Shown here one piece after another: positions 2,611-52,417 of a stretch of 64,000 nt of DNA. Position numbers and translations under genes: made by a program. Position 1 is the first letter of the stretch, and each line of letters opens with the position of its first letter. Source of the stretch: a virus; IMG/VR virus record IMGVR_UViG_3300035086_000100, positions 35,060 through 99,059 of that record; one strand, written 5' to 3'. The notes under the pieces were generated by a model that was not told the DNA's origin, did not search any database, and saw nothing but the letters and a program-made list of their open reading frames with translations.

Positions 2611-3468
2611 TCAGGCGGCTTGGCGCTGCCTTCGGTGCTCGGCCTCCAGTGCCGCCATCTGAGCCTGGTACACACGCGCCATCAGGAGGGTGAACTGCTG
2701 GCCGGCGTAAGCCTGCGGGCACGCCGTGCACCTCACTATTTCCTCCCATCCGCCCTCCCGTGCCTCGTACTGCACCAGCGTCAGCGCATCGCAGCCGTAC
2801 CCGTCGCACGCCACTTCGGTGATGCGGCGGCGCTGCCGGTTCAGGCCCAGCATGCCCCGTGCTCTCCCGGCGATGGCCAGGAACTCAAGCCCCGCGTCGG
2901 TGCCGCCCATCTCGCGGAACTCCCACGCGTCCCCCGCCGAGTCGAAGAACAGCACCAGGCCCGGGTTCGTCTCCGCCAGTTCGGCCAGCCGCGACGGGGA
3001 GGCGTAGCGGGATTTCGGTTCCGGTTCCAGGGACAGCAGCGTGTCCAGGTGCCCGTCCGGCCCCAGGGTCCGGCACGCGTCCGATAGCGCTTTCCCGTCC
3101 CGGCGCTGGCCGGCAGGGTAGTCCGACAGCCGGGCGACCGCCCTGCTTTGCTCTTCCCACCCGACCGCGACCAGCACCATCTCCCGCATGAACGCCTCCA
3201 CGTCCGCCGCCACGGGGATGGGTGCCTCGCGTGACCCGGATACCCGTTCCCCTGCCTGGCCGGTCCTGGGCAGCATCAGGGCCAGGTTCGCGTACGCTTC
3301 GGGGAGCCAGCCGATCGTGCGGCCGATCCAGTCGCGGCAGGTCAGGCAGAACGCCCGGGGGCAGAGCGCGGCGTTGCCCTGGTAGTCGGCTTCCGCGCAT
3401 CTCCGTCCGTTCGCGCAGGGGGTTCCGGAGTCGTTTTCCCCGTCGATGTCCGGGCCGTACCGTGCCAT
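2611..3468 (-). CDS. Zn-finger protein, probable phage late-gene activator
   Basis: N- and C-terminal Cys clusters, ERVSGSREAPIP motif; size and position before late genes typical of actinophage late regulators. Confidence 0.6.
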   Translation of the reverse strand: MARYGPDIDGENDSGTPCANGRRCAEADYQGNAALCPRAFCLTCRDWIGRTIGWLPEAYANLALMLPRTGQAGERVSGSREAPIPVAADVEAFMREMVLVAVGWEEQSRAVARLSDYPAGQRRDGKALSDACRTLGPDGHLDTLLSLEPEPKSRYASPSRLAELAETNPGLVLFFDSAGDAWEFREMGGTDAGLEFLAIAGRARGMLGLNRQRRRITEVACDGYGCDALTLVQYEAREGGWEEIVRCTACPQAYAGQQFTLLMARVYQAQMAALEAEHRRQRQAA

Positions 3469-3632: not shown

Positions 3633-3648
3633 CGGCCAGCGGTGACAG

Positions 3649-4134
3649 TCAGACTTCCATGATCCTCGGCGCGTCCGGCGACTCGTCAGCCAGCATCGAG
3701 GCGAACTGGTCCAGCATCGCGGTCTCGGACGGCTTCAGCTCTCCCCGGCCCACCCGGGCTATCGCGTCCTTCCACCGCTCGGACATGTTCACCGGCTCTA
3801 CCGCCGTCGCCGCCAGCGCGTTCACGATCCGGGGATCGGTACCCTCAGGCACGCGGAACCGGAACGTGCAGTAGGTCGGGTCGAAGTCGTCGTCAGCATC
3901 GCAGATGCAGTCCGGGTGCGCCGCGAGCGCGTCATTGACGGCCTTGTAGTCCGCGCGGTTCGGCCCGCCGGTCCTGGTGTACACCGCGATCACCGGGCCG
4001 TCCTCGCCTCGCTCGGCCCACGCGTCCCGGAACCGGGCTACCTCCGGGTTGCCGAGCAGGCCCAGCAGCAGCGCTCCCCGCTCGGCCTGCTTCCCGTCAC
4101 CCAGCACCACGTCGTAGAGGCCCATGGGCGCCAT
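3649..4134 (-). CDS. Hypothetical phage protein
   Basis: High GC3; RFRD..VYTRTGGPNR..DDDFDPTY. Confidence 0.75.
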   Translation of the reverse strand: MAPMGLYDVVLGDGKQAERGALLLGLLGNPEVARFRDAWAERGEDGPVIAVYTRTGGPNRADYKAVNDALAAHPDCICDADDDFDPTYCTFRFRVPEGTDPRIVNALAATAVEPVNMSERWKDAIARVGRGELKPSETAMLDQFASMLADESPDAPRIMEV

Positions 4135-4315
4135 GATGCCGCAGGCGGGGAGCGGTTTTCAGCCGGCCGGCCTTACGTCCGGCACTCGCACGGAACAGCC
4201 CGGAGTAGCCCCTAGCGGTGCGTGGCGTACCTGACGGCGCACACAAGGAAGCGGCGGGGGGTGCCCATGACCTCGAGGCTCCCACCGCCGCCGGATTCGC
4301 GGAGTACGTCACGCA

Positions 4316-4609
4316 CTATGCGGCCCTTGCCCGCCGTTTCAGTCCCTTACGCTGATTCGGGCTCAACCCCCCGTAGACACCCCAGCGCTCGTCATGCTCC
4401 AGCGCGAACTCAAGGCAGGGTGTTCTCACGGGACAAGCCCGGCATACCTGCTTGGCTGCCCTGGTCCCGCCGCCCTTTTCCGGATAGAAAATTTCGGGAT
4501 CAGTCTCGGCGCACAGCGCGAGGTCTTGCCACGCCGGTCCCTGTGCGTTCACGTCCGGTCCGATGCCGGGATCGCCGGGCATGATCCTGATGATTTCGTC
4601 CATCGTCAT
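4316..4609 (-). CDS. whiB: WhiB family Fe-S transcription factor
   Basis: WQDLALC..DPEIFYP..AKQVCRACPVRTPCLEFAL..GVYGGLS; four conserved Cys. Confidence 0.95.
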   Translation of the reverse strand: MTMDEIIRIMPGDPGIGPDVNAQGPAWQDLALCAETDPEIFYPEKGGGTRAAKQVCRACPVRTPCLEFALEHDERWGVYGGLSPNQRKGLKRRARAA

Positions 4610-5593: not shown

Positions 5594-7819
5594 TCAGTTC
5601 TCTGCGTTGACGAGCGACCGGTACCGGCCACCGCCGAGGTCTTCGGCCACGCCGACCGCTACCAGGTTGCGGAGCGCCTGATCAGCGGAGAACGCGTCCG
5701 TGTCGGCCATCTGCGACACGTCATACAGATCCATCACGCCCCTGCTGGCCAGCCATGCGGCCAGCAGAGGGACGGTGACGGGCTTCGACTCCGGCGGCTG
5801 CGGCAGGTCACCCGAGTCGTGTCGACGGGGCGCGGGCGCATCCTGGGCGGGCGGCGACCAGCGCGGCCCGGCACCCGGTCCGCTGACGACACGGCGAAGC
5901 TCGGCGGTCACCGCGAACGGCAACTGGGAGTCCTTGACGCCATCCGGCAGCGCGGCTATCGCCTCGATCAACTGCGAGCCGTCCAGCACCGACAGCCGGC
6001 CGCCCCACCCGAGCGGCCTGATGACCGCCTCGATCTCGGGGCCGAGTTCCACCACGTCGAGGGAGATCTTCTCGGCCAGTTCCCGCACGTCCGGGCCGTC
6101 CTCGCCCGGCTTGACGTACTCGGGCAGGTGCTTGGTCCGCATCGTCGTAGACGGCCGGTTGTCCGTGCCGTGCAGAAAGCCAAGCCCGTGCACGCCGGGG
6201 GCCAGCGCCGACGTGTCGCCCTGCACGCCCAGCATGTGCTTGCTTAGCCCGTCCGTGCGGTGAGACAGGACATTGAACGCCTTCAGCAATTCGCGGATCG
6301 CCCGCAGGCCCAGTTCGGTGAGGTCCGGCATCTGGACGACCACCTTGACTTTCACGCCGACCTTGCGGCCCTCCATGATGATCGCGGCGACCAGCGGAAT
6401 CGCGATCTTCGACAGCACCGGGTCGCGGACGATCTTCGGCCACTCGTCGATCGTCACGTCGATGATCGGGTTCTCCGGGGTCGGGTCGAACGAGCCCTTG
6501 CCGGTGTTGACCCTGCCCAGGTGGTCGGTCCAGGTCTGGTCGCCGAACCGGGCGGCGCGGTCGCACATGAGAGCGTGCGCCATGATGATCATCTGCACGC
6601 ACGCCTCAAGGCCCCATGCCATCTGGTCGGCGAAGCCCTTCCAGACCGCGAGGGGCTGGCGCTGCGGGTCACCCATCCACAGGGCAATGATCCGCTTGCC
6701 GTCGACCTTCGCCTGGCCTTCCTCGCAGGCGATGACCAGCAGGGAGCCCGTCTTGCCGGATCCCTGCTGGCCGGCCAGGATCCCGGCGGCGACTCCCGAC
6801 CCGGGTATGTGCAGCAGCCAGTGAGCGTCCTCGCCGTCCGCGTACCGCCCGATCCTGACCTTCCCTGTCGCCGGGTCATACGTCGACTTGCCGTCCCACT
6901 TGTCAGCCCGGTTCCACGCGTTCTTGCGGGTCAGAACCGTCACGATCGCCCGCCGCTCCGACCGGTCCGCCGTGTACTCCACGGTGACCTGGTCCCTGCT
7001 CACGTCGAACTGGGCGGCGACCTTCGGGATCAGCGCGAACAAGTCGCCTGTCGTGGTTTCCGACCCGGCGGGCAGCTCGATTTCCAGCGCGAACCCGTCT
7101 TTCACGTCCCGCAGAGAATGGAACCGGGCGCCCTTGCACGGGCCTGACTGCCCGAACCTGGCACTGAACGCCGTCAGCCTCGGGTCAGGAGGAGGGGGAG
7201 CAGCCGGCGCGGGCGCGGGCGGCTCAGGCGGGGGCTCGGGCCGCTTGCGCGCCCGGTACAGGCCGGGAGCGGCGACGGCCAGGCCGCCGCCGAGCATCAC
7301 GAGCTGGCCCCAGCCGTTCAGGACACCCGCAGCGGTCCCTGCCGCCATGGCGGTGCAGCACGCCGCGCACGACGCCCAGGCGGCCTGCCTGCGCGCCCGT
7401 GCCCGGCCCAGCCTGCGCGCCGACGCGCCGTCAGCGGCGAGCCGGGCGGAGATCCTCGCGTGTCGCACCGCCACCCTGACCGCAGCGACCGTGCACGGGG
7501 CAGCGACCAGGGCGTAACCCCACGGCCAGCCGATCGCGTGGCCGCCGGCAACGAGGCCGTCCGCGCCGGCTACCGCGGACAGCGAGGCCAGCGCCCGGTG
7601 CTGGCGCAGGTAGGCGGCCGGGGCGCTGCCCGGCGGGGTGAACTCGGGCGGGTCCGGGTCCGGGCACGGCTTCGACACGGCGCTCTTGCCGCCGGCGGGC
7701 TTCTTCGCGGTCGGTGCCATGGTTCCGGGTCTCCTGCCGTCCTCTTGCGGTTCGGGCCTGATGGCTTCCGCGTCCCCCGCCCGGCTTCGATCCTGCCGGG
7801 CGGGGGACGCGCACGTCAC
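5594..7819 (-). CDS. traB: TraB-type FtsK/SpoIIIE conjugative DNA translocase (alternative start 7720)
   Basis: N-terminal TM helices, Walker A GQQGSGKT, Walker B VTIDE, EGRKVG arginine-finger motif, C-terminal winged helix. Confidence 0.85.
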   Translation of the reverse strand: MTCASPARQDRSRAGDAEAIRPEPQEDGRRPGTMAPTAKKPAGGKSAVSKPCPDPDPPEFTPPGSAPAAYLRQHRALASLSAVAGADGLVAGGHAIGWPWGYALVAAPCTVAAVRVAVRHARISARLAADGASARRLGRARARRQAAWASCAACCTAMAAGTAAGVLNGWGQLVMLGGGLAVAAPGLYRARKRPEPPPEPPAPAPAAPPPPDPRLTAFSARFGQSGPCKGARFHSLRDVKDGFALEIELPAGSETTTGDLFALIPKVAAQFDVSRDQVTVEYTADRSERRAIVTVLTRKNAWNRADKWDGKSTYDPATGKVRIGRYADGEDAHWLLHIPGSGVAAGILAGQQGSGKTGSLLVIACEEGQAKVDGKRIIALWMGDPQRQPLAVWKGFADQMAWGLEACVQMIIMAHALMCDRAARFGDQTWTDHLGRVNTGKGSFDPTPENPIIDVTIDEWPKIVRDPVLSKIAIPLVAAIIMEGRKVGVKVKVVVQMPDLTELGLRAIRELLKAFNVLSHRTDGLSKHMLGVQGDTSALAPGVHGLGFLHGTDNRPSTTMRTKHLPEYVKPGEDGPDVRELAEKISLDVVELGPEIEAVIRPLGWGGRLSVLDGSQLIEAIAALPDGVKDSQLPFAVTAELRRVVSGPGAGPRWSPPAQDAPAPRRHDSGDLPQPPESKPVTVPLLAAWLASRGVMDLYDVSQMADTDAFSADQALRNLVAVGVAEDLGGGRYRSLVNAEN

Positions 7820-8139
7820 CGGCCAGTGCGGGCCTCGTCGGCGTACTGCTTGTGCGGGGTGTTCTCCGGCCCTCCGGCCGCGGCGACAGCCTCGCCGACC
7901 GGGACCTGGGTGTCGTTGACGGTGTCGGTCATCCGGATCCCGGACGCGACAAGGTCGGTGATCTCGGCCTGGAACACGCGGATCGCGGCGGCCTGCGACA
8001 GGTCGCCGTTGTCGGCCTCCACCTGGGCGGCCATCGTGTCGAGCAGGTCACGCAACTGCTGAAGCCGGGTAATGCAGGCGCCGGCCCAGGCAAGCCAGGC
8101 GGCATGAGTGTTCGTCTCGCCGATCAGCGGGGCAGTCAT
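7816..8139 (-). CDS. 107-aa helical hairpin protein (TraA-like)
   Basis: RBS GAGGGAG; colinear paralogue of the C-terminus of the upstream gene. Confidence 0.75.
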   Translation of the reverse strand: MTAPLIGETNTHAAWLAWAGACITRLQQLRDLLDTMAAQVEADNGDLSQAAAIRVFQAEITDLVASGIRMTDTVNDTQVPVGEAVAAAGGPENTPHKQYADEARTGR

Positions 8140-8164
8140 TGGTTCTCCCTCAGGTAGTGGTCGT

Positions 8165-9595
8165 CTACATCTCGGCGTAGTAATCCGGGTCGGCCACCTC
8201 GTCGGAGCCGCCGGCGCCCTGGACCGCGTCCACGTACGGGTCCTGGTGCTGGTTGACTTCCTCGACCAGGTTCCGGCCGTGGGACATCACGGCGGTGACC
8301 TGGTCAAGCCAGGCGGTCACCGCCGCCATGTGCTCCCGGCCGGCGCTCTTCGCGCTCAGGCACTTCAGCGTGTTCTCCGCCGACTGGGCGATGCCTTCGA
8401 GCGCGGCGTCGATCGCGCTGGTCAGCCCTTCCCAGTCGGCCTGGGTGTGCAGTTCACCGTCAGGCGCGCACGTCATCGGGTCTCCTTGCGGTTGCGGCGG
8501 TGCAGCCTGACCGGGCTGCGTCGGCCCTGCCGGGGCATCCGGCGGGGAATTCTGGGCGGCAGCCTCCTGCGCGATCCGGCCGGCTTCGGCGGCCAGGAAC
8601 TCGGCGTCGCCAGCGGTCAGCGGCATCTCGTTGCCGTCCGCGTCCACGGGGGTTCCCGCGGCGGCCAGTTCGGCTGGCTGGCGTTCCCTGACTGCCCCGT
8701 CCGGGTAGCGGGCCGGGATGCGGGTGATGACGCCGTCCTTGCTGCTCGTGCCGCCGTACCCGCAGTACAGGCAGATGTCGGCGTTGGTGGCATTCACCAC
8801 GTACCAGGTGCTTCTGGGCATGAGCTGGCGGTTGCAGCCCGGCTCGGAGCAGATCCTGACCGGCAGTTTCCATCGGGCCGGGTCTGCGCCCTCGCGGCTG
8901 ACTGGCAGGCCCTGGTAGTCCGGGCACAGCAGGCAGCCCGGATTCACGCACGCGAAGCCGGCCAGCGGCTTGCCGCAGCGGACGCAGCGCGGCGCCGGGA
9001 CTGCCCCGGGTTCCGGGTCGCCCACGATCTCCGCGTCGGGAATCTCGTCGTCGGGGGGCAAGTCGCCGTCCCGCATGGCGGGCGGGGCTTCCTCCGCATG
9101 CTCTGCGACGGCCGGACGGCTGGCACCCGGACGGCATGAGCCGCACAGCCCGTCTTTCAGGGCCGTGACAGCGGCGATGCCGCCGCACTGGCCGCACACC
9201 CCGATCCGCAGCAGCCGGGGGCGCTCGCCGTCCCGCAGGCGCTTCCTGGCCTCGCCGTAGGCGTACTTCCCGCCCCGCCATGCCGCTCCGGCGATCCGGC
9301 GCACGATCCCGGCGCCGTTGCGGAACAGCCTGCGGCGGCGCATCGCCGCGCGAACGGCCCTGGCGGTCCTCATCGCCGCCCACGCCCAGAACGCCGGGTA
9401 GAAGGCGCCGCGCTTGCGGTCCTCTTCAAGCCGTTTCGCGAGCGCCGCGCCCGCCTTGGTTCCCTTGTCCTTCAGGGCCTGGAGTACCGCCGCGCGGACC
9501 GTGCGGCCCTCGGCCACGGCCTGCCAGATCCCGGCCTTGCCGGCGGCGTGCACGACCAGCCACGCCACCAGCATCGGCATGAGGACGACCATCAT
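8165..9595 (-). CDS. TraA-like protein: N-terminal TM/basic region, three Cys clusters, C-terminal helical hairpin (possible internal start 8476)
   Basis: RBS AAGGGAG; CxxC pairs; internal AAGGAGA-5nt-ATG. Confidence 0.7.
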   Translation of the reverse strand: MMVVLMPMLVAWLVVHAAGKAGIWQAVAEGRTVRAAVLQALKDKGTKAGAALAKRLEEDRKRGAFYPAFWAWAAMRTARAVRAAMRRRRLFRNGAGIVRRIAGAAWRGGKYAYGEARKRLRDGERPRLLRIGVCGQCGGIAAVTALKDGLCGSCRPGASRPAVAEHAEEAPPAMRDGDLPPDDEIPDAEIVGDPEPGAVPAPRCVRCGKPLAGFACVNPGCLLCPDYQGLPVSREGADPARWKLPVRICSEPGCNRQLMPRSTWYVVNATNADICLYCGYGGTSSKDGVITRIPARYPDGAVRERQPAELAAAGTPVDADGNEMPLTAGDAEFLAAEAGRIAQEAAAQNSPPDAPAGPTQPGQAAPPQPQGDPMTCAPDGELHTQADWEGLTSAIDAALEGIAQSAENTLKCLSAKSAGREHMAAVTAWLDQVTAVMSHGRNLVEEVNQHQDPYVDAVQGAGGSDEVADPDYYAEM

Positions 9596-9608: not shown

Positions 9609-10046
9609 TTACTGGCCGGTGATACGGGACACGACCGCACCGGCAATGTGGTCGAAGAAGCCGAGCACCCCGGCGGCCTTGTGCCCGAGCGTCAGCAGCA
9701 GCAGCGCCGGGAGGAGCAGCCCGAACGTGGGCTGCAGGATCCGGTTCGGGGTTCCGCCGAACTTCTTCACGCCGTCGTGGATGAACTCGACGGTGATCAG
9801 GCCGGTGATGCCGATCTCGATCCAGTGCGCCACGCCGGTCAGGCCCGCGATGTAGCCGCCGAGCAGGCCGGCCAGGGGGATGCCCACGGCGAAGGCGAGC
9901 CAGCCGATGATCCGCGCCGACTTCTTCTTGCGGTGCATTCCGAGGGCGATGCCGCCGAGCAGGGCGGCCCCTCCGATTGACAGGCCGGCGATCTGGCCGC
10001 CGGTCAGGCCGGCCGGGGTGACCCCGGCGGCCAGGATGATGTTCAT
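9609..10046 (-). CDS. Spd-like membrane protein (3-4 TM)
   Basis: Hydrophobic Gly-rich helices; RBS AAAGGAA; in tra operon. Confidence 0.7.
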   Translation of the reverse strand: MNIILAAGVTPAGLTGGQIAGLSIGGAALLGGIALGMHRKKKSARIIGWLAFAVGIPLAGLLGGYIAGLTGVAHWIEIGITGLITVEFIHDGVKKFGGTPNRILQPTFGLLLPALLLLTLGHKAAGVLGFFDHIAGAVVSRITGQ

Positions 10047-10073
10047 TGCGATGGTTCCTTTCGGGGGGGATCG

Positions 10074-10643
10074 TTACCTGAGGTGGAAGGCCAGCCAGGC
10101 AATGCCGATGAAGGCCGCCGCCCCGCCGAGCCGGATCGGGCGGGCGAACAGCCACGCCAGCAGGTAGCCGGCGGTCACGCCGAGCCGTCCGACCGTCAGG
10201 TGGTAGCAGTTGCCGGCCGGGCCGGAGTACTTGCCGTGATGGGTGCACGCCCGGGCTGCGTTTCGGCACGGCTCGCAGCACGGCACCCAGGCCCGGGATT
10301 TGCGGTAGGCGTCATGGACGGCCAGTGACTCGGGCGAGGCGTGCCACGGGCCGCGCGGGTTGGTGACGGTCTTCCGCGCCGTCTGCCAGCACATGGCCGC
10401 CAGGTGCAGGGCGACCGTGCCGCCGCCGATCTTCAGGACCACGCCGTCAGGCACGTCAGCGTCAGGCAGCGCCAGTGCGGCGCCAGGGTCACCGTCAGGC
10501 GCACCGTCAGGCGGAGTGTCATGCCAGCCGTCAGGCGGAGCGTCATGCCGGCGGTGGTGCCCTGGCCCGCCGCAGGACCCGTCAGCCTCGCCCGGGTCAC
10601 GAAGGTCGAACTCGAAGTCAAGGTCGGGCAGCGAACTGGTCAT
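10074..10643 (-). CDS. Spd-like membrane protein with low-complexity PPDG N-terminus
   Basis: C-terminal TM; ATGA coupling. Confidence 0.65.
   Translation of the reverse strand: MTSSLPDLDFEFDLRDPGEADGSCGGPGHHRRHDAPPDGWHDTPPDGAPDGDPGAALALPDADVPDGVVLKIGGGTVALHLAAMCWQTARKTVTNPRGPWHASPESLAVHDAYRKSRAWVPCCEPCRNAARACTHHGKYSGPAGNCYHLTVGRLGVTAGYLLAWLFARPIRLGGAAAFIGIAWLAFHLR
10445..10587 (+). repeat. Array A of CGTCAG(GCG) motif, candidate clt/TraB recognition repeats
   Basis: 7 CGTCAG cores (10445, 10454, 10460, 10493, 10505, 10529, 10580) plus GTCATGCC variants. Confidence 0.75.
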
Positions 10644-10852
10644 GACACCCTCGCGAGTTTCTCGGCAAGCTGGGCTAGCTGGTCGGTGAGCTGGCGGACA
10701 AGGCCCGGTCCCCGGCGGGGGATCTTCATCGCGTCGGCGGCCACGGCGCGAGCCAGCGCGGTCGCCTCCGCCAGCGCCTTCATCTCCTCGCCGGCGGACT
10801 GCGCGGCGGTCATGCGCTCCCTGTACCGGGCGCGCGCGGCAGCGGTAGTCAC
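10640..10852 (-). CDS. Small helical protein
   Basis: GTG 10852; coupled to the downstream gene by ATGA. Confidence 0.55.
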   Translation of the reverse strand: MTTAAARARYRERMTAAQSAGEEMKALAEATALARAVAADAMKIPRRGPGLVRQLTDQLAQLAEKLARVS

Positions 10853-10946
10853 CGGGTACCGCCTCGCGCGCGCGGGCACGCGCAGGTGCATGCCTGCATG
10901 TGCATCCCCGCGTTGGGGGTTCCGGCAGGGCTCAGTTCCGGGCTGG

Positions 10947-11840
10947 TCACCTGTCCGCTCCTTCCGTCTCGCGTGCCGTCTCATCCAGTTCGGGCAGCCA
11001 CTTGGACCGCATCTGCCGGCCCAGGCTGCTGGACGCCGAGAGCCCGGCCGCGCGGACCAGGTCGGCACCGGACGGCGCGGGCCTGCCCGCCTGGATCTCG
11101 GTGTCCCAGTAGGTGCGCATCACCTGGGCGGCGCCGTTGTTGCTCCCGGGCGGACCCGGGGGGATGCACTGCCCGGCGGTGATCGCCAGCTCCCGCGCGT
11201 GGCCGCCGGCGACCGGCAGGCGGCTGACGGGGCTGACGGACTGGCTGGCGGCCCTGACGATTTCCGCCTGACGCTCCGCGATGGCGGCGCGACGCCCGGC
11301 CGCCTGACGCTGACGCTCTTCTTCCGCCTGACGGTCTTCTTCCGCCTGACGGTCGGCGGCCTGACGCTGACGCTCAAGCTCCGCCTGACGCTCGGCCTCC
11401 GCCGCTATCGCCTGACGCTCGGCCAGGCCCTTGCGGGCCGCCTCGGCTGCCCGCCGCTCCATGAGGGAGATCGCCAGCATGAGGAACAAGCCGGGGATCG
11501 CGGCCGTGATGTACCCCCACGCCGACGACTGCGCCCCGGCGAGGTTCCCGGCCAGGGTCAGGCCGATCCCGAAGATCATCACGATGGTGGGCCACGACAT
11601 CCAGCCGCGGCGCTTGCGCCCGGTCCTGATGTCGCGCTGCCGCTCGCGGGCAGCCATCAGCACCCCGAGGTCCACGCACACGGCGATCAGCGGCGCCAGG
11701 ACGCCGGGCTGGCCGTGGCCCGATGCCAGCCGCGTCCAGTGGTCGAACGAGCCGCCGAACGCGATCAGCGCGAGGGCGAGCGGGATGCCGTTGTCGGCGA
11801 CCGCCCGCCCGAAGCCGTTCCCGTCCCCGGCGGCGCTCAC
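10947..11840 (-). CDS. DUF2637/SpdA-like membrane protein with coiled coil and C-terminal HTH
   Basis: 4 TM (AFGGSFDH..PLIAVCVDLG..LTLAGNL..AAIP), RQA repeats, PSGADLVRAAGLS HTH. Confidence 0.8.
   Translation of the reverse strand: MSAAGDGNGFGRAVADNGIPLALALIAFGGSFDHWTRLASGHGQPGVLAPLIAVCVDLGVLMAARERQRDIRTGRKRRGWMSWPTIVMIFGIGLTLAGNLAGAQSSAWGYITAAIPGLFLMLAISLMERRAAEAARKGLAERQAIAAEAERQAELERQRQAADRQAEEDRQAEEERQRQAAGRRAAIAERQAEIVRAASQSVSPVSRLPVAGGHARELAITAGQCIPPGPPGSNNGAAQVMRTYWDTEIQAGRPAPSGADLVRAAGLSASSSLGRQMRSKWLPELDETARETEGADR
11224..11417 (-). repeat. Array B of CGTCAG(GCG) motif, inverted relative to array A
   Basis: 12 CTGACG cores on + strand; full CGCCTGACG at 11265, 11301, 11325, 11343, 11382, 11409. 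Confidence 0.8.
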
Positions 11841-12640
11841 GACGGCACCGCCCCGGGTGACCGGTCGCCTATGCGCCAGTTCTCGTCCCATGCCTTATCC
11901 ATCGCGGACGGGTCGTACGTCGTCCCGGCCGCGATCGAGTGCATCGCCGCAGAGGGCGCACGGCGCTGGTAGTACTCGTCGTCAAAGTCGTGGAAGTGCG
12001 ACCCGTGAATGATCCGGCCGTCGTCGGCGACGCCCAGCAGGTCATATTCGGCCTGCGGACCGCCGCACGCATCGCAGGCGGGCTCAAGTTCGGCGAGGCT
12101 GTCAGCCTCGGCAACTGCGGCAGCGAGCGCAGCCCGGCACTGGCGGCACAACGTCCCGGCACTGGCGGGCTCGCCGCACCAGCAGCAGTAGCGCCAGCGG
12201 TTCCGGATACGGGCGATGACGCTGAAGTCGCTGCGCCAGCGGCACTTCGGGCAGGCCAGCAGATCCAGGGGGTCAGGGTCGCCCGGCTCGGCGATCAGCG
12301 AGGCGCCGCACAGCGCGCGGGGGACCTTGATCCGCAGCCGGTCGAGCAGGCCCTGCCAGAAGCCGGCGACGTGGAGGAACGCGCTGTCCGGCGACTGCGC
12401 GAGCGGCTCGGTGGCTTCTACCTGCCAGCCCTGGTCGCAGATCCAGAAACGTGCATCATCCGGATCCGGGTAGGCATCGCCGAGCGGGGACAGTGTGGCC
12501 ATGCGCCAGGACGCCTGCACCCCGGACGGGGGCACGTGACGGGGGTCGGCGGCGATGATCCGCATCGTGCCGTCGCCCAGGATGCCCCAGATCACCGCGC
12601 CGGGCTCCATGTCCCGGGTGAGCATGTAGTAGCTGGTCAT
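11837..12640 (-). CDS. Hypothetical Cys-rich protein
   Basis: ATGA-coupled start with GGGAGG RBS; several CxxC. Confidence 0.6.
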   Translation of the reverse strand: MTSYYMLTRDMEPGAVIWGILGDGTMRIIAADPRHVPPSGVQASWRMATLSPLGDAYPDPDDARFWICDQGWQVEATEPLAQSPDSAFLHVAGFWQGLLDRLRIKVPRALCGASLIAEPGDPDPLDLLACPKCRWRSDFSVIARIRNRWRYCCWCGEPASAGTLCRQCRAALAAAVAEADSLAELEPACDACGGPQAEYDLLGVADDGRIIHGSHFHDFDDEYYQRRAPSAAMHSIAAGTTYDPSAMDKAWDENWRIGDRSPGAVPS

Positions 12641-12798
12641 GACGCCTCCCGGTTTTCGTCGCGCTTGGCGACCGCAGTGCCGGAGCAGGCGGGGCAGGCG
12701 GACAGGGTCAGTCCCCGCACGCCGGTCCACTCGCAGTCACCGCAGTTCCAGCGGGCAAGCGGCCTGCGCTTGGCGTTGCCGTAGGTCCGGGCGATCAT
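12637..12798 (-). CDS. Small Zn-ribbon protein
   Basis: CGDC..CPAC; ATGA coupling on both sides. Confidence 0.55.
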   Translation of the reverse strand: MIARTYGNAKRRPLARWNCGDCEWTGVRGLTLSACPACSGTAVAKRDENREAS

Positions 12799-12998
12799 GA
12801 CGCCTCCCGGCTGTCGCGCTGAGCGAGATGCGCGTCCCATGCGCGGTCCGTCTCGCGCATCCACTCAGCGGCCGAACCGTTCCTCGCGTGCCAGCCCTCC
12901 CAGTACTGGGAGCCGCCGTCCGCGTGGTCGGCGTGGCGCTGCTCCTCGTCGGCCAGGGCCTGCTCTATCTCGGCCTCGGTCGGCTCACGGGCGCTCAT
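12795..12998 (-). CDS. Hypothetical protein
   Basis: Coupled ORF in operon. Confidence 0.55.
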   Translation of the reverse strand: MSAREPTEAEIEQALADEEQRHADHADGGSQYWEGWHARNGSAAEWMRETDRAWDAHLAQRDSREAS

Positions 12999-13180
12999 CG
13001 GGAGCCTCCGTGGTCAGGGCAGTTGCCGTGCCAGTCGCACGACTCGTGGTCGGTCTTGACCTCGCCGAACGAGCCGGTCGTGCCTGCCCCTCCGTCGCGT
13101 GAGCCAAGCCGGTGGTTACCCTCCGACCAGCGCTCGCCTTCGCTGCTTTCCAGCCAGGCGATGACCTCGGGGTCGTTCAT
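12995..13180 (-). CDS. Hypothetical protein
   Basis: Coupled ORF in operon. Confidence 0.5.
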   Translation of the reverse strand: MNDPEVIAWLESSEGERWSEGNHRLGSRDGGAGTTGSFGEVKTDHESCDWHGNCPDHGGSR

Positions 13181-13401
13181 GACGCCACCCGCCCGTCATA
13201 GGCGGTCTCGCAGGCGGCTGCGTAAGCGGCGGCTGCGGCGCCGATGCCGTTCGGGCACTGGTCGTCGGTCGTGACGACCCTGACTTCGCCTAGGTAGCGC
13301 TCCACCAGTGCGAAGCGTGCGGCAGGCCGGTCAAGGCGCATCGCCTCGGTAGCCGGCTCGACCGTCAGGACCGGGACGGCGGGGAAGGCCCGGATGTTCA
13401 C
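13177..13401 (-). CDS. Hypothetical protein
   Basis: GTGA overlap at 13398-13401; 3' part of track ORF 13177..13896. Confidence 0.45.
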   Translation of the reverse strand: MNIRAFPAVPVLTVEPATEAMRLDRPAARFALVERYLGEVRVVTTDDQCPNGIGAAAAAYAAACETAYDGRVAS

Positions 13402-13583
13402 CGGACTAGCGACAGGATGCACTGCGAGCCGCTGGCGACCCGGTCCCGGTCCGCCAGCATCCTGCGTCCCATGATCCGGATGTCCCGCCGGAACGCCGCG
13501 ATCATCGCGTCCTGCTCGGAGATCACGGCCAGCAGTTGCGTCCTTGTCATCTTGGTGACGGGGACGGGGGGTACTATCTCCAC
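13398..13583 (-). CDS. Hypothetical protein
   Basis: RBS AAGGA; amphipathic helix. Confidence 0.5.
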   Translation of the reverse strand: MEIVPPVPVTKMTRTQLLAVISEQDAMIAAFRRDIRIMGRRMLADRDRVASGSQCILSLVR

Positions 13584-13805
13584 TTGAGTCAGTCCTTACT
13601 AGGGGATGCGGACTCGGATCAGCAGGGTCACCGTTTGCGGCGGTGGCCCTGCTTGCGTTCAGGGGGAAGTTCGCGGTCCCGCAGGAGTGGCCGTCAGCGG
13701 ACCAGTAGACGGTCCCGCAGTTGCCGCAGACCGAAGTCATGCTCAAGCCGGCCGACCGGGGGGCGCAGGAGCGGCAGAGCGGCGGGATGGCTATCGGGGA
13801 GAAGT

Positions 13806-14036
13806 TCATGACTGGCCGCCCTGAGGCCATGCCGTCATGGAAGTGACGAAAGCGCCCGGCACCCGCCACTGAACGCCGACCCGCTTGGCGGGCCACGCGT
13901 CCTTGTCGGCTAGGTGCAGGCGCTTGTAAGTGGCGACGGAGATCTTGAGCCGGTCACAGGCGATCTTGATCGGCAGCAACTCGCCATCGGTGCCCGTCAA
14001 CTTCCGGACATCCGCAGAGGTGCCGTTGGTGCTCAA
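13806..14036 (-). CDS. Excisionase-like HTH protein, first gene of the leftward operon
   Basis: LLPIKIACDRLKISVATYKR..PAKRVGVQWRVP; TTG start with GGGAG RBS. Confidence 0.7.
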   Translation of the reverse strand: MSTNGTSADVRKLTGTDGELLPIKIACDRLKISVATYKRLHLADKDAWPAKRVGVQWRVPGAFVTSMTAWPQGGQS

Positions 14037-14073
14037 CGCTGCTCCCTGTTGGCTGCAAGTACCATTCGGTTTC

Positions 14074-14114
14074 CTACCTAGGCCAATAGTAGGTAGTGCT
14101 AGCCAAGTCGTCAA
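14074..14114 (-). promoter_or_regulatory. Promoter of the leftward tra/late operon with dyad operator
   Basis: TTGACG (14114-14109), 17 bp, TACTAT (14091-14086); CTACCTA-N9-TAGGTAG inverted repeat 14074-14096. Confidence 0.75.
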
Positions 14115-14199
14115 GGCTTGTTCATCAGTGAAAACCGGTGAACTCGGGCGTAGCGGGTGGGGTTATGCCGCAGGAACGGAATCGGCCTAGGCAGATACC

Positions 14200-15096
14200 A
14201 TGATTCGCATGCAACCGATAGACCCCGACGACAAGCGGCATCCGCACGTCCAGATCGCGGCCTCGATCCGCGCGGCGATCCTCACGGGAGAACTTGAGCC
14301 AGGCTCGCAACTTGACACCGGACAGGAACTGGCGGCCTTCTTCGGCGTGTCCCGCATGACCGTGGCTTCGGCGATCCGCACGCTCCGCGACGAGGGCTTC
14401 GTCCGCTCCCGCATGGGCAGCGGCGTGTTCGTCCGCGACCTGGCCAGCCTCCCCGCACCCGAAGGCGAGGAGCATCCGCTGGCCGGGACCGCGATGTTCC
14501 TGTTCGAGATAGGCCAGCTCAAGCACCAGCCCCGGTCGGGCTGGCTGCTGCTGGGCATCCCGCACCCGGAGAGCGTCGCCGAGCACTCATTCCGGGTCGG
14601 CGTCATCGGCCTGATCCTCGCGGCGATGGACGGTGCCGACGTCGGGCGCACTGCCGCCCTGGGCCTGATGCACGACGCGCACGAAACCCGGATCGGCGAC
14701 GTTCCCTCAGTCGGCCGCGCCTACGTCACCACGGCGGACCCCGAAGCCATCACGGCCCACCAGGTCGCGAAGATGCCCGACGAGGCATCGAAGGCCGTGC
14801 AGGAACTCACCGCCGAGTACGAGGCGAACGTGACCCGCGAGGCGCGGCTGGCCCACGACGCGGACAAGATCGAGACGCTGCTGCAGGCCACCGAGTACCA
14901 GGCGCAGGGACATGACACCGAGACGTGGCGGGAGAACTCGGTAGCGGCACTGCGCACCGAACCAGGCCAGCGGCTGGCCCAGGCCATAGGCGCAGGCGAC
15001 TCGCGGTGGTGGGCGCCATTCAATGCGTCCTACCTCGAATTGCATGCCAGTGCGCGCAACCGCACTCAGGCAAGCCGGCCCGACGAGGAGGGATGA
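14200..15096 (+). CDS. GntR winged-HTH + HD-domain (YfbR/HDDC2-like 5'-nucleotidase) fusion; probable start 14209
   Basis: QIAASIRAAILTGEL..GVSRMTV..GSGVFV; RSGW..ESVAEHSF..MHDAHETRIGD..DADKIE. Confidence 0.9.
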   Translation: MIRMQPIDPDDKRHPHVQIAASIRAAILTGELEPGSQLDTGQELAAFFGVSRMTVASAIRTLRDEGFVRSRMGSGVFVRDLASLPAPEGEEHPLAGTAMFLFEIGQLKHQPRSGWLLLGIPHPESVAEHSFRVGVIGLILAAMDGADVGRTAALGLMHDAHETRIGDVPSVGRAYVTTADPEAITAHQVAKMPDEASKAVQELTAEYEANVTREARLAHDADKIETLLQATEYQAQGHDTETWRENSVAALRTEPGQRLAQAIGAGDSRWWAPFNASYLELHASARNRTQASRPDEEG

Positions 15097-15866
15097 TGCG
15101 CGCCGCGATGGCCACCGAGCCCGGCGACGCGGACGTCCCCAACGAGGACTGGTTCGGCATTGCCCCGGAAGCCGTCGTCGTGCTCGACGGCGTGACGGTA
15201 CGGGCAGGCATCGAGTCAGGCTGCGGCCACGGAACGCCCTGGTACGTCCGGCGGCTCGGCGGCATGCTCATGGACGGCATCATCGCGGGCGGGCTTCCGC
15301 TCGCCGATGCGCTCGCGGGCGGCATCAGCGCCGTAGCCGCGCAGCATGCCGGGACCTGTGACCTGGGGACAGTCGGCGCACCTTCAGCCGCCGTGGGCAT
15401 TGTGAGGCTCACGGGCGGCCGGGCCGACTGGCTGGTCCTTGCCGATATCAGCGTCGTTCTCGGCGAGCCCGGCGGGGTACGGGTGATCTCCGACAAGCGG
15501 GTAGACGACTCGGTGGCGGGGATCAGCGTCACCGGCCCGGCTGTTGGCCAGCGGATCGGCGAGGCCCGCACCGCGCACCGCAACCGGCCCGGCGGCTACT
15601 GGGTGGCCGCAGCCGATCCCGAGGCGGCGGCGCACGCGGTAACCGGGTCGGCGCCGCTGGGGGACCTGCACCGGCTCGCGGTGATGACGGACGGCGCCTC
15701 GCGGCTGGCCGACATGTTCGGGATGCCGTGGCCTGACGTGCTGGCAATAGACCCCGGCGACCTGATCGCGATGGTCCGCAAGCACGAGGCGGACGACGCC
15801 GGACGGGTGCGCTACCCGCGCTTCAAGGTCAGCGACGACGCGACCGCCGTAGCGGTTTCGCCCTGA
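15093..15866 (+). CDS. PP2C-family phosphatase
   Basis: NED, VLDG, LAD, MTDG, SDDAT motifs; ATGA coupling. Confidence 0.85.
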   Translation: MMRAAMATEPGDADVPNEDWFGIAPEAVVVLDGVTVRAGIESGCGHGTPWYVRRLGGMLMDGIIAGGLPLADALAGGISAVAAQHAGTCDLGTVGAPSAAVGIVRLTGGRADWLVLADISVVLGEPGGVRVISDKRVDDSVAGISVTGPAVGQRIGEARTAHRNRPGGYWVAAADPEAAAHAVTGSAPLGDLHRLAVMTDGASRLADMFGMPWPDVLAIDPGDLIAMVRKHEADDAGRVRYPRFKVSDDATAVAVSP

Positions 15867-19680: not shown

Positions 19681-20028
19681 GCGCCAGCCAGCGTAGCAAG
19701 ACGGCGGATGACGGGAAGGGTGATCCGGTAGCCGCCCGGGACGCGGCTGGCGGGCGGGCGGCGCTCTTGCTACCGTGACCCTGCAGCGCAGCGAGAAAAG
19801 GATCAGCCCGCTACCGCGAACTCCCCGATCGCGGCGGCGGGCTGATCCGCTTCGCCGCCCCGGTGCAGGCCCGGAACCGGGGGATAAGGGGTTCCTGCCC
19901 CGCGGAGGGACGGCTTCCGCCCGGAGGACCGGAGCACGGGGGTGACTCCGCCTGGCCGGGCTGGATCCACTATCGCACGGCGTTGGCGGGCACGCAGCGA
20001 TTGGCGGGCGAAACGGCGTGGCTGGCGC
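19681..20028. ncRNA. Candidate structured non-coding element (~350 nt)
   Basis: Nested perfect helices 19681-90:20019-28, 19693-701:19765-73, 19800-11:19837-48 and shorter ones; no credible ORF. Confidence 0.35.
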
Positions 20029-20048
20029 CAGAATGTCCCGCGCTCAGG

Positions 20049-20100
20049 TACCTGTGCAAGGGCATCTGCCGACGTATCGGCAGAGATGCCTGCACAGATA
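20049..20100. other. Candidate attP for the serine integrase
   Basis: 52-bp imperfect dyad, 18/24 arm matches, centre GT at 20074-75, ends 10 bp before the integrase ATG. Confidence 0.7.
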
Positions 20101-20110
20101 CGATGCCGCG

Positions 20111-21499
20111 ATGAGTGAGGCACTGAGCGCCGCCGTGTACTGCCGCATGTCACTGGCCGTCATGGGCGACACGACGAAGGTCGAGGACCAGGAGCGGATC
20201 TGCCGGGAACTGTGCGAGCGGCTTGGCTGGCGGGTGCATGACGTGTACGCCGACAACAACAAGTCGGCGTGGCAGAAGAACCGCAAGCGCCCGGCCTGGG
20301 ACCGGATGCTCGCCGACGTCGACGCGGGCCTGATCGGCGCGATCGTGGTCTACCACGGCGACCGGCTGGTGCGGCGGCCTCAGGATCTCGCCAAACTCAT
20401 CGAGCTGGCCGACAGCAAGGGCCTGCGGCTGGCCTCGCCGACCGGCACGCGCAACCTCGACAACGGCGACGACCGGTTCATCGTGTGGATCGAGGCCGCC
20501 GCGCAGGAGCGCTCCTCCTATGACACGTCGCGGCGCAAGATCACCCAGTACGAGCGGATGCGGCGTGAAGGCAAGGTGCGCCCTGGCGGCAGGGGCGGCC
20601 GGTCCTACGGCTTCCGGGGCGACAACCTGACGATGATCGAGTCGGAGGCCGCGAACCTGCGGGAGGCCGCCGCCCGGATCCTGGGCGGGGAGGGCGCCGG
20701 GGCGGTCGCCGCCGACTTCACCGCGCGGGGCATCGTGACCCAGACCGGGATCCCGTTCACCTACGCCACCTTGCCGCAGCTCCTCAAGCGCCCGCGGTAC
20801 GCGGGCCTGATGCCGGACGGGGTACAGCAGGCGGCATGGGAGCCGGTGCTGGAGCGGTCGCAGTGGGAGGCGCTGCGCGCGGTGCTCGGAAACCGGTCGG
20901 CCGGGTACGGGTACGCGGTGAACTCGCGCCGCTACCTGCTGTCCGGGATCGCCGAGTGCGGGTTCGGGGACTGCGGGGCGCCGCTGCAGATCCGGCACAC
21001 CCGGGTCCGCGGCGACGGGCCGCCGAACGTCGGCTACGCCTGCATCAGGCCGGGCTGCCGCAAGACCTACCGGTCGCGGGTGATGCTCGACGCCTACGTG
21101 AGCCAGCGGGTGGTCTCGCTGCTGAACCAGGAAGGCAACCCGGAGCCGGCGGCGCCGCGGACGCCGGGGCTGGCCGAGCGGTACGCGGCGGCGGACGCGC
21201 AGCGCCGCGAGATCGAGGAGGTTCTCGCCGACCCGTCGCGGGGGTCGGTCCCGGCGCTGCTGAAGCGGCTGGACCGGGTGAACGCGACGCTGGCGGAACT
21301 GAGGGACCTGTCGGCGGGCGACGCCCGGTCCCGGCTCAGGACCCGGTACGCGGGCCTGACCCTGGAGGAGTTCAGGGGCCTGCCGCTGGCGGTGCGCCGC
21401 TCGCTGGTGGCCGCCTACTTCCGGGTCGTCGTCCTGCCGTCGTCGAAGAAAGGGCCGGGGTTCCGCACCGAGGACGTCCGGATGATCCCGCGCGGCTGA
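20111..21499 (+). CDS. int: Large serine recombinase (integrase)
   Basis: YCRMS catalytic Ser, DRLVR, recombinase domain (YG..RYAG), Zn ribbon LLSGIAECG..C..YAC..C, coiled coil. Confidence 0.95.
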   Translation: MSEALSAAVYCRMSLAVMGDTTKVEDQERICRELCERLGWRVHDVYADNNKSAWQKNRKRPAWDRMLADVDAGLIGAIVVYHGDRLVRRPQDLAKLIELADSKGLRLASPTGTRNLDNGDDRFIVWIEAAAQERSSYDTSRRKITQYERMRREGKVRPGGRGGRSYGFRGDNLTMIESEAANLREAAARILGGEGAGAVAADFTARGIVTQTGIPFTYATLPQLLKRPRYAGLMPDGVQQAAWEPVLERSQWEALRAVLGNRSAGYGYAVNSRRYLLSGIAECGFGDCGAPLQIRHTRVRGDGPPNVGYACIRPGCRKTYRSRVMLDAYVSQRVVSLLNQEGNPEPAAPRTPGLAERYAAADAQRREIEEVLADPSRGSVPALLKRLDRVNATLAELRDLSAGDARSRLRTRYAGLTLEEFRGLPLAVRRSLVAAYFRVVVLPSSKKGPGFRTEDVRMIPRG

Positions 21500-34375: not shown

Positions 34376-35355
34376 TGCCCCGCACCGAAGCGCGCATCTT
34401 CACGACCATCTGGCGCGATGAGGACTTCCTGGCACTGCCGGCGGGTGCCCAGCGGCTCTACATGTTCCTGCTGAGCCAGGACGACCTGTCCTACTGCGGG
34501 GTGATGCCGCTGCGCGAGCGGCGCTGGGCGGGCAAGGCCGCGGGCCTGTCGCTGCATGACGTGGAAACGGACCTCAAGGCGCTGGAGACGGCCGGGCGCA
34601 TGTTCGTCGTCACCGACGAGGACACCGGGGAGCTGCTGGTCCGCGCGATGATCCGGCGTGACGGCGCGTGGAAGCAGCCCAACTTGCTCAAGCAGGCCCG
34701 CGAGTCCGCCGAGCAGATCGAGTCATCCAAGATACGTGCCCACCTGCTGACTGAGCTGCAGCGCCTGCCCGTCTGCGAGTCACCATCAGAGCAGGTCAAG
34801 ACCCTGGTCGCTGATTTCATAATAGATCTTGAACAGGGTAAGCCGAAGGGTAAGGCTTACCCTGAGCCGGACCCAAGCGACGACCCTCCGGCCGACCCTA
34901 CGGGCGAGGGTTCGGCCAACGGCAGGGCCGAGGGTGCGGCTAAGGACAATGCGTGCGCGCGGGAGCTTGGAGTACGTAACGGTAGTAACCAACGTCTTCT
35001 CCAAGCTCCTACCTCCGAAGCTCCAAGTTCTTTGCCGGCGCGGGATCGAAAACTCGGCACGTACCTGCCTGAGCCCTTCGTCGTTACCGACGAAATGAAG
35101 ACCTGGTTCCGCCAGCACTGCGCCCACGTCAATGCCCGGTTCGAGCACGACAAGTTCCTCGACCACTGGCGCGGCAAGCCCGGCAAGGACGGCCGCAAGG
35201 TCGACTGGGTTGCCACCTGGCGGAACTGGATGCGCAACGCCGAGCAGCGTTCCGCCCCCCGCCACCGCGGCGGCAGCCAGCGCCAGGAAGCAACCGACGA
35301 ATGGACCGAGCGCGCGCTGAGCCGTGCTCAGGCACGGCAAGGAGAACCCGCATGA
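34375..35355 (+). CDS. Phage replication initiator
   Basis: IW.DEDF.AL..AQRLY..LLSQ N-terminus; KF.DHW..K.DW.ATWRNW C-terminus; iterons in linker. Confidence 0.85.
   Translation: MPRTEARIFTTIWRDEDFLALPAGAQRLYMFLLSQDDLSYCGVMPLRERRWAGKAAGLSLHDVETDLKALETAGRMFVVTDEDTGELLVRAMIRRDGAWKQPNLLKQARESAEQIESSKIRAHLLTELQRLPVCESPSEQVKTLVADFIIDLEQGKPKGKAYPEPDPSDDPPADPTGEGSANGRAEGAAKDNACARELGVRNGSNQRLLQAPTSEAPSSLPARDRKLGTYLPEPFVVTDEMKTWFRQHCAHVNARFEHDKFLDHWRGKPGKDGRKVDWVATWRNWMRNAEQRSAPRHRGGSQRQEATDEWTERALSRAQARQGEPA
34835..34936 (+). repeat. AGGGT/ACCCT iteron cluster (phage origin candidate)
   Basis: AGGGTAAG at 34835 and 34847, CTTACCCT at 34856, CGACCCT x2, GAGGGT x2. Confidence 0.55.
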
Positions 35356-51424: not shown

Positions 51425-52417
51425 TCACGTTTGCTCCCTCGCTAGCCGGCGCCGCTCGGAAAGGACGGTCCCGGATCGCTTGTTGCGGCGGAACCTGGCC
51501 CGGTCATACCGCTGCGTTGTTCGGCCGTCCTTGTGCCCTGCCGTGTCCTGAACGATCTCCATCGCCACGCCGGCATCGCGGGCGTGCGTGATGTGGGAGT
51601 GCCTCAGTGAGTGCGGGTTCAACTTCGGCCACGACCTGATCCCGGCCTGCCGCGCTAGCCGACGCACGAGCCGCCACACGTCCTGCTCTATCAGAGCGAC
51701 CCCGGTGCGAGTCGTGAACAGCGGCTCATGCGGACCCGGTTCGCCGCGAGTCGCCAGGTAGGCGCCAAGCGCGTCGCTGGCCTCAGTCTCGATGACGTAC
51801 CGCCGTTCGGTGCCGCCCTTGAGTATGAGCCGCAGGCTGCGCTCACCCTGATCCCAGCCGAGATCGCCGATCGTGGCACCGAGGACCGACCCGACCCGGA
51901 ACGCTCCGAAGTACAGGACCGAGATCAGCGCGAGCGCCCGCGGGCTGTCGGCTCCGGCCTGGTCGAGCAGCGCGTCTATCTCGTCGACGCTGAGGCCGGT
52001 AGCCGGGGACACATCGCGGTCTATGTTCGGCCGCCCGGTGGCCTTGGCCGGGTTCCGCTCGGTAACTTCCTCGCCGATGAGGTAGTCGTACCAGCTGCTG
52101 ATCGCAGAGAGTTTCCGCGCCCTGGTGCCAGGGGAGTGGCCGTCCGCTTCGAGCAACTTGGCGTAGACGGCTACATGCCGCTTGCGCGCGGTGAGCGGGT
52201 CGAGACTGTTACTGGCGCACCACGGCAGCCACGCGGGAGTCTGCATCTTCGCGGGCTTGCCGTTCGTGCCGACCCCGATCAGGTCGCGCCGGTACGCGTT
52301 CAGGGTGTGGACGCTCTTGAGCCCGGCCAGCCAGCCGAAGGTAGCGCCCGCGAAGTCTTCCGCCGGGTTTTCGAGGACGGCAGGCAGCGCGTTGCCGGCG
52401 AGGGCGATCTCGGTCAT
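51425..52417 (-). CDS. Tyrosine recombinase (XerC/D-like resolvase)
   Basis: T..AY.RDL, RKLSAISSWY, catalytic R (AFRVG), KGG, HSLRH, AGH, T..Y. Confidence 0.92.
   Translation of the reverse strand: MTEIALAGNALPAVLENPAEDFAGATFGWLAGLKSVHTLNAYRRDLIGVGTNGKPAKMQTPAWLPWCASNSLDPLTARKRHVAVYAKLLEADGHSPGTRARKLSAISSWYDYLIGEEVTERNPAKATGRPNIDRDVSPATGLSVDEIDALLDQAGADSPRALALISVLYFGAFRVGSVLGATIGDLGWDQGERSLRLILKGGTERRYVIETEASDALGAYLATRGEPGPHEPLFTTRTGVALIEQDVWRLVRRLARQAGIRSWPKLNPHSLRHSHITHARDAGVAMEIVQDTAGHKDGRTTQRYDRARFRRNKRSGTVLSERRRLAREQT

Follow-up and report, generated by a model that had tools for sequence, protein, structure and literature searches.

The DNA analysed here, a stretch of 64,000 nucleotides (the window) covering positions 35,060 to 99,059 of the IMG/VR virus record IMGVR_UViG_3300035086_000100, carries two oppositely oriented arrays of one short DNA word, each enclosed in the coding sequence of a different gene. 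The complete genome has 99,059 bp with 68.9% G+C and is that of a tailed phage of an actinomycete: genes were found for a tape-measure protein, a portal, a large terminase and a minor head protein, and the genome also encodes an endolysin and a methyltransferase. The two genes carrying the arrays are placed in a run of minus-strand genes that includes one for a TraB-like ATPase, and all positions given for this genome are those of the window.

The first array (array A, 10445..10585, plus strand) lies in the gene named here P0001 and is composed of seven copies of CGTCAG, starting at 10445, 10454, 10460, 10493, 10505, 10529 and 10580, and one CGTCAT; on the coding strand of the gene, which is the minus strand, the word is read as TGACG. 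Array B (11224..11417, minus strand) lies in the gene P0002 and has 12 copies of CGTCAG, all on the coding strand, at 11224, 11233, 11254, 11268, 11304 and 11310 in its first half and at 11328, 11346, 11361, 11367, 11385 and 11412 in its second. A preliminary description of this DNA had reported seven copies on the plus strand and 12 on the minus strand, which sequence and pattern search confirmed. It had also placed both host genes on the minus strand, with the two arrays facing each other head to head, and had noted that 11302-11315 repeats the 14-mer CGTCAGCGTCAGGC (10454-10467) exactly, in reverse complement, all of which the sequence bears out. The core had been drawn as CGTCAG(GCG), whereas the logo common to both arrays is R-S-C-G-T-C-A-S; the actual core is CGTCA/TGACG within the asymmetric 8-mer RSCGTCAS.

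No other such cluster exists in the 99-kb genome. Its densest 200-bp segments are the two arrays, with 12 and 7 copies, and the next densest has 3. The pattern CGTCAGGCG matches 13 times in the window, where shuffled sequences give 2.45 +/- 1.48, and nine of the 13 fall inside the two arrays.

The host gene of array A, P0001 (10074..10643, minus strand), encodes a membrane protein of 189 residues with a C-terminal membrane helix and has no family match in Pfam, PHROG or NCBIfam. The array occupies an N-terminal low-complexity segment, an acidic x-D-G/A repeat that is flanked by a conserved M-x-L-P-x-V-S-L start and a conserved domain, and the word appears there as CCT/GCT GAC G, giving the peptide P-D or A-D. 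The host gene of array B, P0002 (10947..11891, minus strand), encodes a 314-residue protein of the DUF2637 family (PF10935, E 7.6e-07). In nine of the 12 copies the word is CGT CAG (R-Q), in a long charged helix, and the remaining three (11224, 11233 and 11254) are in another frame, xxC GTC AGx, encoding V-S or V-R in a disordered linker that precedes a helix-turn-helix (HTH). An AlphaFold2 model built from a 9-sequence alignment (mean predicted local distance difference test score, pLDDT, of 68) puts membrane helices in residues 26-119, a single long helix in 124-213 (pLDDT 96-98 at 160-200) whose codons contain the in-frame CGT CAG copies, a disordered region at 216-251 that corresponds to the out-of-frame copies, and a three-helix HTH at 252-313. 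According to the alignment, helix 3 of this HTH begins at an invariant SSLGRQ, with the pattern SSLGRQ...W. The isolated HTH tail had no match in Pfam, and a Foldseek comparison of the whole model with the PDB gave no match at E <= 0.001.

Eighteen related loci were collected, one from IMG/VR (L001), 16 from metagenomes (L002-L017) and one from a Streptosporangiaceae metagenome-assembled genome (L018), and they present the same gene order. Both arrays, in convergent order, were found in all the loci long enough to show them (L001-L007, L010, L016 and L018), among which the DUF2637 proteins are 39-67% identical; each array has 6-12 copies of the word. In these loci the coding strand of the DUF2637 gene always bears CGTCA, and that of the downstream gene TGACG. 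L001 (the same contig as L022) is the single relative in IMG/VR, and it is phage-like, with YdjM after the TraB-like gene and, further downstream, an open reading frame with a Walker A motif that is terminase-like by eye. Neither the DNA nor the TraB-like or DUF2637 protein found a useful relative when public collections of phages and plasmids were searched. The one match, on a Nonomuraea chromosome (L019), was to the DUF2637 membrane domain only and without arrays. A match on an unpublished genome (G002) was kept out of all the conclusions.

The codons that make up the word are disfavoured in this genome, as had been stated before: codon usage is strongly G/C-ending, with T-ending codons accounting for 6.8% of all codons, CCT for 7.6% of Pro, CGT for 4.5% of Arg, GCT for 7.5% of Ala and GGT for 7.1% of Gly. 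In the relatives array A has the form NNT GAC GSY NNN, with a 12-bp period in 57 of 79 spacings. We took every Asp codon of the N-terminal segment, with no pre-selection of sites, in 12 non-redundant P0001-like loci, and 88 of the 120 were preceded by a T-ending codon, compared with 201 of 1413 (14%) genome-wide (binomial P ~3e-48). The residue before Asp is any of 14 amino acids, and the codon that follows is GCY/GGY 81 times versus GCG/GGG 6 times.

A similar preference is found in the DUF2637 linker, where CGT is used for 49 of the 58 Arg residues that precede Gln or His, against 4 of the 102 other Arg codons of the linker and 9 of 163 Arg outside it. Array B of the relatives keeps 4-9 copies in frame 0, and its spacings are mostly multiples of 6 bp, to which the out-of-frame copies are added. 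In six of the ten loci examined these form a trio in frames 2, 1 and 2 at 10-11 bp spacing, placed after the CGT CAG run and reading ATC GTC Axx CCA xCG TCA Gxx AxC GTC Axx; the other four, including the window, have their out-of-frame copies at different spacings. The residue after Val in the out-of-frame copies is in most cases Thr, Asn, Ser (AGC) or Arg (AGG), whose codons all begin with A.

The word is seen as CGT CAx, xxC GTC Axx and xCG TCA and, on the other strand, as xxT GAC Gxx; the genes of two unrelated proteins thus retain CGTCA on both strands and in three reading frames. It is the DNA word, not the encoded peptide, that is under selection. This is what the preliminary description had proposed, and among the homologues the word is indeed kept while P-D-G becomes A-D-A, T-D-G, G-D-A or I-D-A. 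It had named, as the outcome that would speak against it, homologues that keep the peptide and lose the codons; the opposite was found, the DNA word being kept while the peptide changes. One could suppose that there is no function at the DNA level, the peptide repeats having been made by slippage and the codons being alike by descent or gene conversion. Tandem Repeats Finder does detect 12-, 18- and 24-bp periodic units in both arrays, and both segments are low-complexity peptides. However, the wobble T and the CGT codons persist across lineages with 34-55% protein identity in which residues and codon positions 1-2 change, and since one word occurs in three frames, on both strands and in two unrelated proteins, peptide selection or repeat homogenisation cannot explain it. 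We regard an origin by slippage as highly improbable.

The preliminary description had assigned the arrays to a TraB-type transfer module, and a TraB-like gene (NCBIfam plasmid_TraB NF041214, E 1e-11) is indeed present in the same gene run. It is located at 5594..7819 on the minus strand and encodes an FtsK-type ATPase of 741 residues with the Walker A motif GSGKT. With 44 bits against an equivalog cutoff of 800 bits, its product is far below that cutoff and appears to be a distant TraB. Its C-terminus (~665-741) is winged-helix-like, with faint similarity to TrmB (E 0.15); the GRYR wing is conserved, and the putative helix 3 is acidic and varies among loci. The order of the module is DUF2637-HTH protein, small helical protein, P0001-like protein, three further proteins and TraB-like protein, which leaves 2.6-3.6 kb between the arrays and the TraB-like gene, and in four loci YdjM is found downstream of the latter. 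Divergent from the gene run is a plus-strand gene (14200..15096) encoding a GntR-HD regulator (GntR E 1.3e-17; HD_3 E 2.2e-31), in a position that matches that of the TraR/KorA-like regulator in plasmid modules. In L004 a divergent GntR+UTRA regulator is found in the same place; the window protein joins the GntR HTH to an HD-domain phosphohydrolase and its L004 counterpart has a UTRA effector domain instead.

A hidden Markov model search of 401 Streptosporangiales genomes found a P0001-like gene in four of them. Two of these modules, both on Streptosporangiales chromosomes (L027 and L028), are more distant, with TraB 44-46% identical and P0001-like proteins 29-37% identical, and have neither CGTCA arrays nor the x-D-A repeat. 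What they have is a different word: L027 encodes a 542-residue membrane and HTH protein (7138-8766) whose linker codons hold a dense array of a palindromic GACC/GGTC word (8226-8560), and L028 has such an array at 8526-8800, also in linker codons of the membrane and HTH protein. The word is of the type GACC(N)GGTC / GGTCYCGGACC, with CGGACC nine times and TCTCGGAC six times within 250 bp, and the palindrome variants include GGTCYCGGACC, GACCAGGTC and GACCGGTC. By eye, GGACC in L027 is found in more than one codon frame. The HTH of the membrane protein in L027 and L028 differs from the DUF2637 HTH of the window, and helix 3 of the TraB winged helix differs too. The idea that homologues would swap the word together with the HTH is thus supported, a different word being accompanied by a different HTH, and the arrays of L027 and L028 support the generality of coding-embedded arrays.

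Since the word persists where the encoded residues do not, it most likely serves the TraB transfer module as a place for a protein to dock. With somewhat better than even confidence, we read the two arrays as a cis-acting locus at which a protein docks, belonging to a phage-borne module of TraB type for the transfer of double-stranded DNA; that a protein binds, which protein reads the word and what part the locus plays in transfer are the inferred elements of this view. As the reader, the preliminary description had offered either TraB or the DUF2637 HTH. If TraB were the reader, the locus would be a classical clt: the winged helix would recognise the arrays, hexamers would load there and pump, and the two orientations would set the direction of pumping. 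An 8-bp word in direct-repeat arrays linked to a TraB-like gene is indeed reminiscent of pSVH1, pJV1 and pWTY27 (PMC4447253, PMC3583192), and both the conserved GRYR wing and the altered winged-helix domain of the modules that use another word would fit. But both CGTCA arrays are intact in L001, where the TraB-like protein (13341-15206) stops right after the motor domain and is without the winged-helix region of ~130 residues present in the other loci. Moreover, the putative TraB recognition helix is acidic and differs from locus to locus while the word does not, no polarity is seen across the genome except what gene orientation explains, and the arrays are kilobases away from the TraB-like gene, inside other genes. 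The classical clt explanation consequently seems doubtful to us. Because L001 keeps the arrays without the TraB domain, we favour the HTH tail of the DUF2637 protein as the candidate reader and put the TraB winged helix second. The same choice is favoured by the putative recognition helix of the DUF2637 HTH, whose first six residues (SSLGRQ) are invariant where helix 3 of TraB varies, and by the precedent of sps, sites that lie in the gene of their own binder, SpdA2 (PMC4170104), so that of the two readers first named TraB is the one weakened.

The region between the arrays has features of its own. The small helical protein of ~70 residues is encoded at 10640..10852 on the minus strand, from a GTG at 10852; homologues are present in L002, L012 and L014, and by eye the protein has a counterpart in L027. 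The stop codon of the DUF2637 gene is followed directly by a conserved intergenic element (10851..10920, minus strand), which consists of CCCAAC..GGGG, ~40 nt of alternating purine/pyrimidine (TG/CG/CA) and GCGCGCGAGG; the last resembles a ribosome-binding site and precedes the GTG with which the gene of the small helical protein starts. The alternating tract is predicted to be Z-DNA-prone. The element was found in eight of the ten CGTCA-type loci scanned, with no clear match in the other two, L003 and L004, and it is kept even in the distant modules with a different array word. Its positions are 10938-11027 in L001, 1941-2030 in L002, 5373-5462 in L016, 6906-6995 in L018, 9391-9480 in L027 and 9249-9338 in L028. 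It has no match in Rfam.

One alternative is a replication origin, in which the arrays would be iterons to which an initiator binds, with melting of the DNA element that separates them. In phage lambda the iterons of ori are placed in the linker codons of the initiator gene O, and here too the repeated sites run through the flexible-linker codons of the gene for a phage DNA-binding protein; the arrays flank a distinctive intergenic element and the host is a phage. Here, however, two genes share the arrays, which are inverted relative to each other, and a transfer module goes with them. Between them lies a GC-rich element of alternating purine and pyrimidine rather than an AT-rich unwinding region, no homology to an initiator or helicase loader was found among the module proteins tested, and the arrays accompany a TraB/Spd-type module in every locus. 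A role as origin iterons is thus quite unlikely.

Several observations weigh against the docking reading or against the choice of reader made in it. L001, on which the preference for the DUF2637 HTH depends in part, is one viral contig from a metagenome. Conservation of the candidate DNA-binding domains is almost equal (DUF2637 HTH 62%, TraB winged helix 61%) and both differ in the L027 and L028 modules, so that covariation fails to separate the readers. Further candidate readers are a ParB-like protein in L018 and the GntR regulator and, in the window, a DNA-binding protein of phrog_1568 (2611-3468) and a small HTH protein (2284-2601). Two short contigs (L013 and L014), which end before the upstream DUF2637 region, have a P0001-like gene with a Pro/Ala-rich N-terminus and no TGACG array, from which it follows that array A can be absent in members of the P0001-like family. 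The distance from array to array varies from ~0.6 to 1.5 kb among loci because the intervening genes differ between them, and no complex of fixed geometry is implied. Finally, on the minus-strand RNA (10436-11425) the two arrays pair with each other in both the minimum free energy and the centroid folds (z -4.6, 20 shuffles).

This last result would be expected if the arrays acted at the RNA level, forming on one transcript a long-range duplex that regulates translation or processing of the intervening and following genes, and each locus has exact inverted matches of 10-18 nt between its arrays. However, any two inverted arrays of one word would pair in a fold, and duplexes between arrays of the same locus are no better than those between loci (-167.6 versus -157.8 +/- 28.6 kcal/mol; the diagonal ranks fall anywhere from 1 to 10). 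The 12-nt phasing of array A has no counterpart in the spacings of array B, the distant modules have a single palindromic array instead of a pair, and no Rfam match was found. We consider an RNA duplex very unlikely.

If docking is the function, the mechanism could be as follows. The word would be superimposed on segments that tolerate it, the charged helix and disordered linker of one protein and the acidic, disordered N-terminus of the other. A DNA-binding protein of the module would coat both arrays, and the bound protein would hold the DNA of the element at the membrane beside the TraB pore, as clt does on Streptomyces plasmids. The HTH of the DUF2637 protein would in this case bind sites within or adjoining its own gene, like SpdA2 with sps. 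We also put forward, as a possible but tentative extension, that this is a general design of actinomycete TraB/Spd modules, those of tailed phages included, in which arrays of the docking word of a membrane-anchored HTH protein are written in the codons of its own flexible linker and of a neighbour gene, the nascent protein, while inserting into the membrane, captures the DNA that encodes it and tethers it beside the TraB pore, and the facing arrays with the element between them are the entry point where the pump receives the phage genome. We think this extension less likely than not.

The locus is best likened to the clt and sps docking sites, from which it differs in having two convergent arrays, in being wholly coding and in its tailed-phage host. 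The clt loci of plasmids are clusters of direct repeats of 5-9 bp bound by TraB/TraA, and the published ones are recognised by the TraB winged helix (PMC4447253, PMC3583192). As in clt, a cluster of short (~8 bp) direct repeats, unique in the element, is linked to a gene for a TraB/FtsK-like translocase and to a divergent GntR regulator, and the repeat word differs between related elements. Unlike clt, the locus found here has two arrays of opposite orientation, each contained in the coding sequence of a gene other than that of the translocase; it belongs to a tailed phage of 99 kb, its TraB-like protein is a remote relative (44 bits where the cutoff is 800), and in L001 the arrays persist although the TraB winged helix is missing.

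The sps of plasmid pIJ101, a 12-bp palindrome in 1-3 copies, lies within the spdA2 coding region, imposes a conserved peptide motif and is bound by SpdA2; the published test of it was synonymous recoding (PMC4170104). Here, too, sites are found inside the coding region of a gene of the spread module, array B being in the DUF2637-HTH gene. The differences are that the word is an asymmetric 8-mer in arrays of 6-12 copies over two genes, and that the candidate reader is a membrane protein with an HTH that belongs to DUF2637 (PF10935), a Pfam family other than that of SpdA, although no search aimed at SpdA similarity was made. In a search of the literature we found no paper describing convergent coding-embedded arrays of this kind in a tailed phage.

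A third comparison is with the words that give a chromosome its polarity. The FtsK-orienting polar sequences (KOPS) and SpoIIIE recognition sequences (SRS) are read by the gamma domain of FtsK/SpoIIIE. The likeness is in the oriented 8-bp word near an FtsK-family motor, converging at one point. The words are here clustered and not dispersed, though, with no genome-wide skew beyond gene orientation, and the TraB-like protein of the window is without a gamma domain. A gamma-like tail was seen only in L018, where the TraB-like protein (10267-13164) has, after the winged helix of the module itself, an extra C-terminal tail resembling FtsK gamma (…SMLQRKLRTGFGHACQLMDQLEHAGIVG…). A KOPS-like polarity over the whole genome, the analogy drawn in the preliminary description, was rejected by the strand-bias count: CTG and ACG being common codons, the bias of CGTCAG tracks the direction of the genes, and the point where it switches is near 14 kb and not at the locus. 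The earlier interpretation is accordingly kept in its DNA-level constraint, its facing arrays and its TraB-type module, and given up in the KOPS analogy.

On coding strands CTGACG shows a modest excess over synonymous shuffles (z 2.8-3.9). In a genome count that left out the two host genes of the arrays, CTGACGSY was observed 31 times on coding strands versus 16.3 +/- 3.8 in synonymous-codon shuffles, an excess of about twofold that may reflect either codon context in general or a weak preference for the word across the genome.

These arrays provide a testable candidate cis site for a TraB-type module, not characterised before, that resides in tailed phages whose hosts are of Streptosporangiales type, and they point to the DUF2637 membrane-HTH protein, instead of or alongside TraB, as the factor that would select the DNA. 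They also illustrate cleanly how a code for regulation or docking can be superimposed on a protein-coding one, using three frames and both strands, and such an overlaid code matters for the annotation, codon-usage analysis and recoding of these genes. If the docking role is true, it would help to explain how TraB chooses its substrate and whether some phages move as conjugative DNA; if the general design is also true, a tailed phage could spread through the mycelium in that form.

Some other features of the region and of its relatives deserve mention. A sigma-70-like promoter (TTGACG-17-TACTAT, 14086..14114, minus strand) is the only such match in 10000-14600 and heads the minus-strand run that contains both arrays. 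The window also encodes a large serine recombinase (20018-21499, plus strand; phrog_95, E 1e-63) and a tyrosine integrase (51425-52417, minus strand; phrog_1, E 1e-34). In L003, a 320-residue HATPase_c_2 protein (3639-4601, E 7.6e-12), a histidine-kinase-like ATPase, is encoded between the two array genes.

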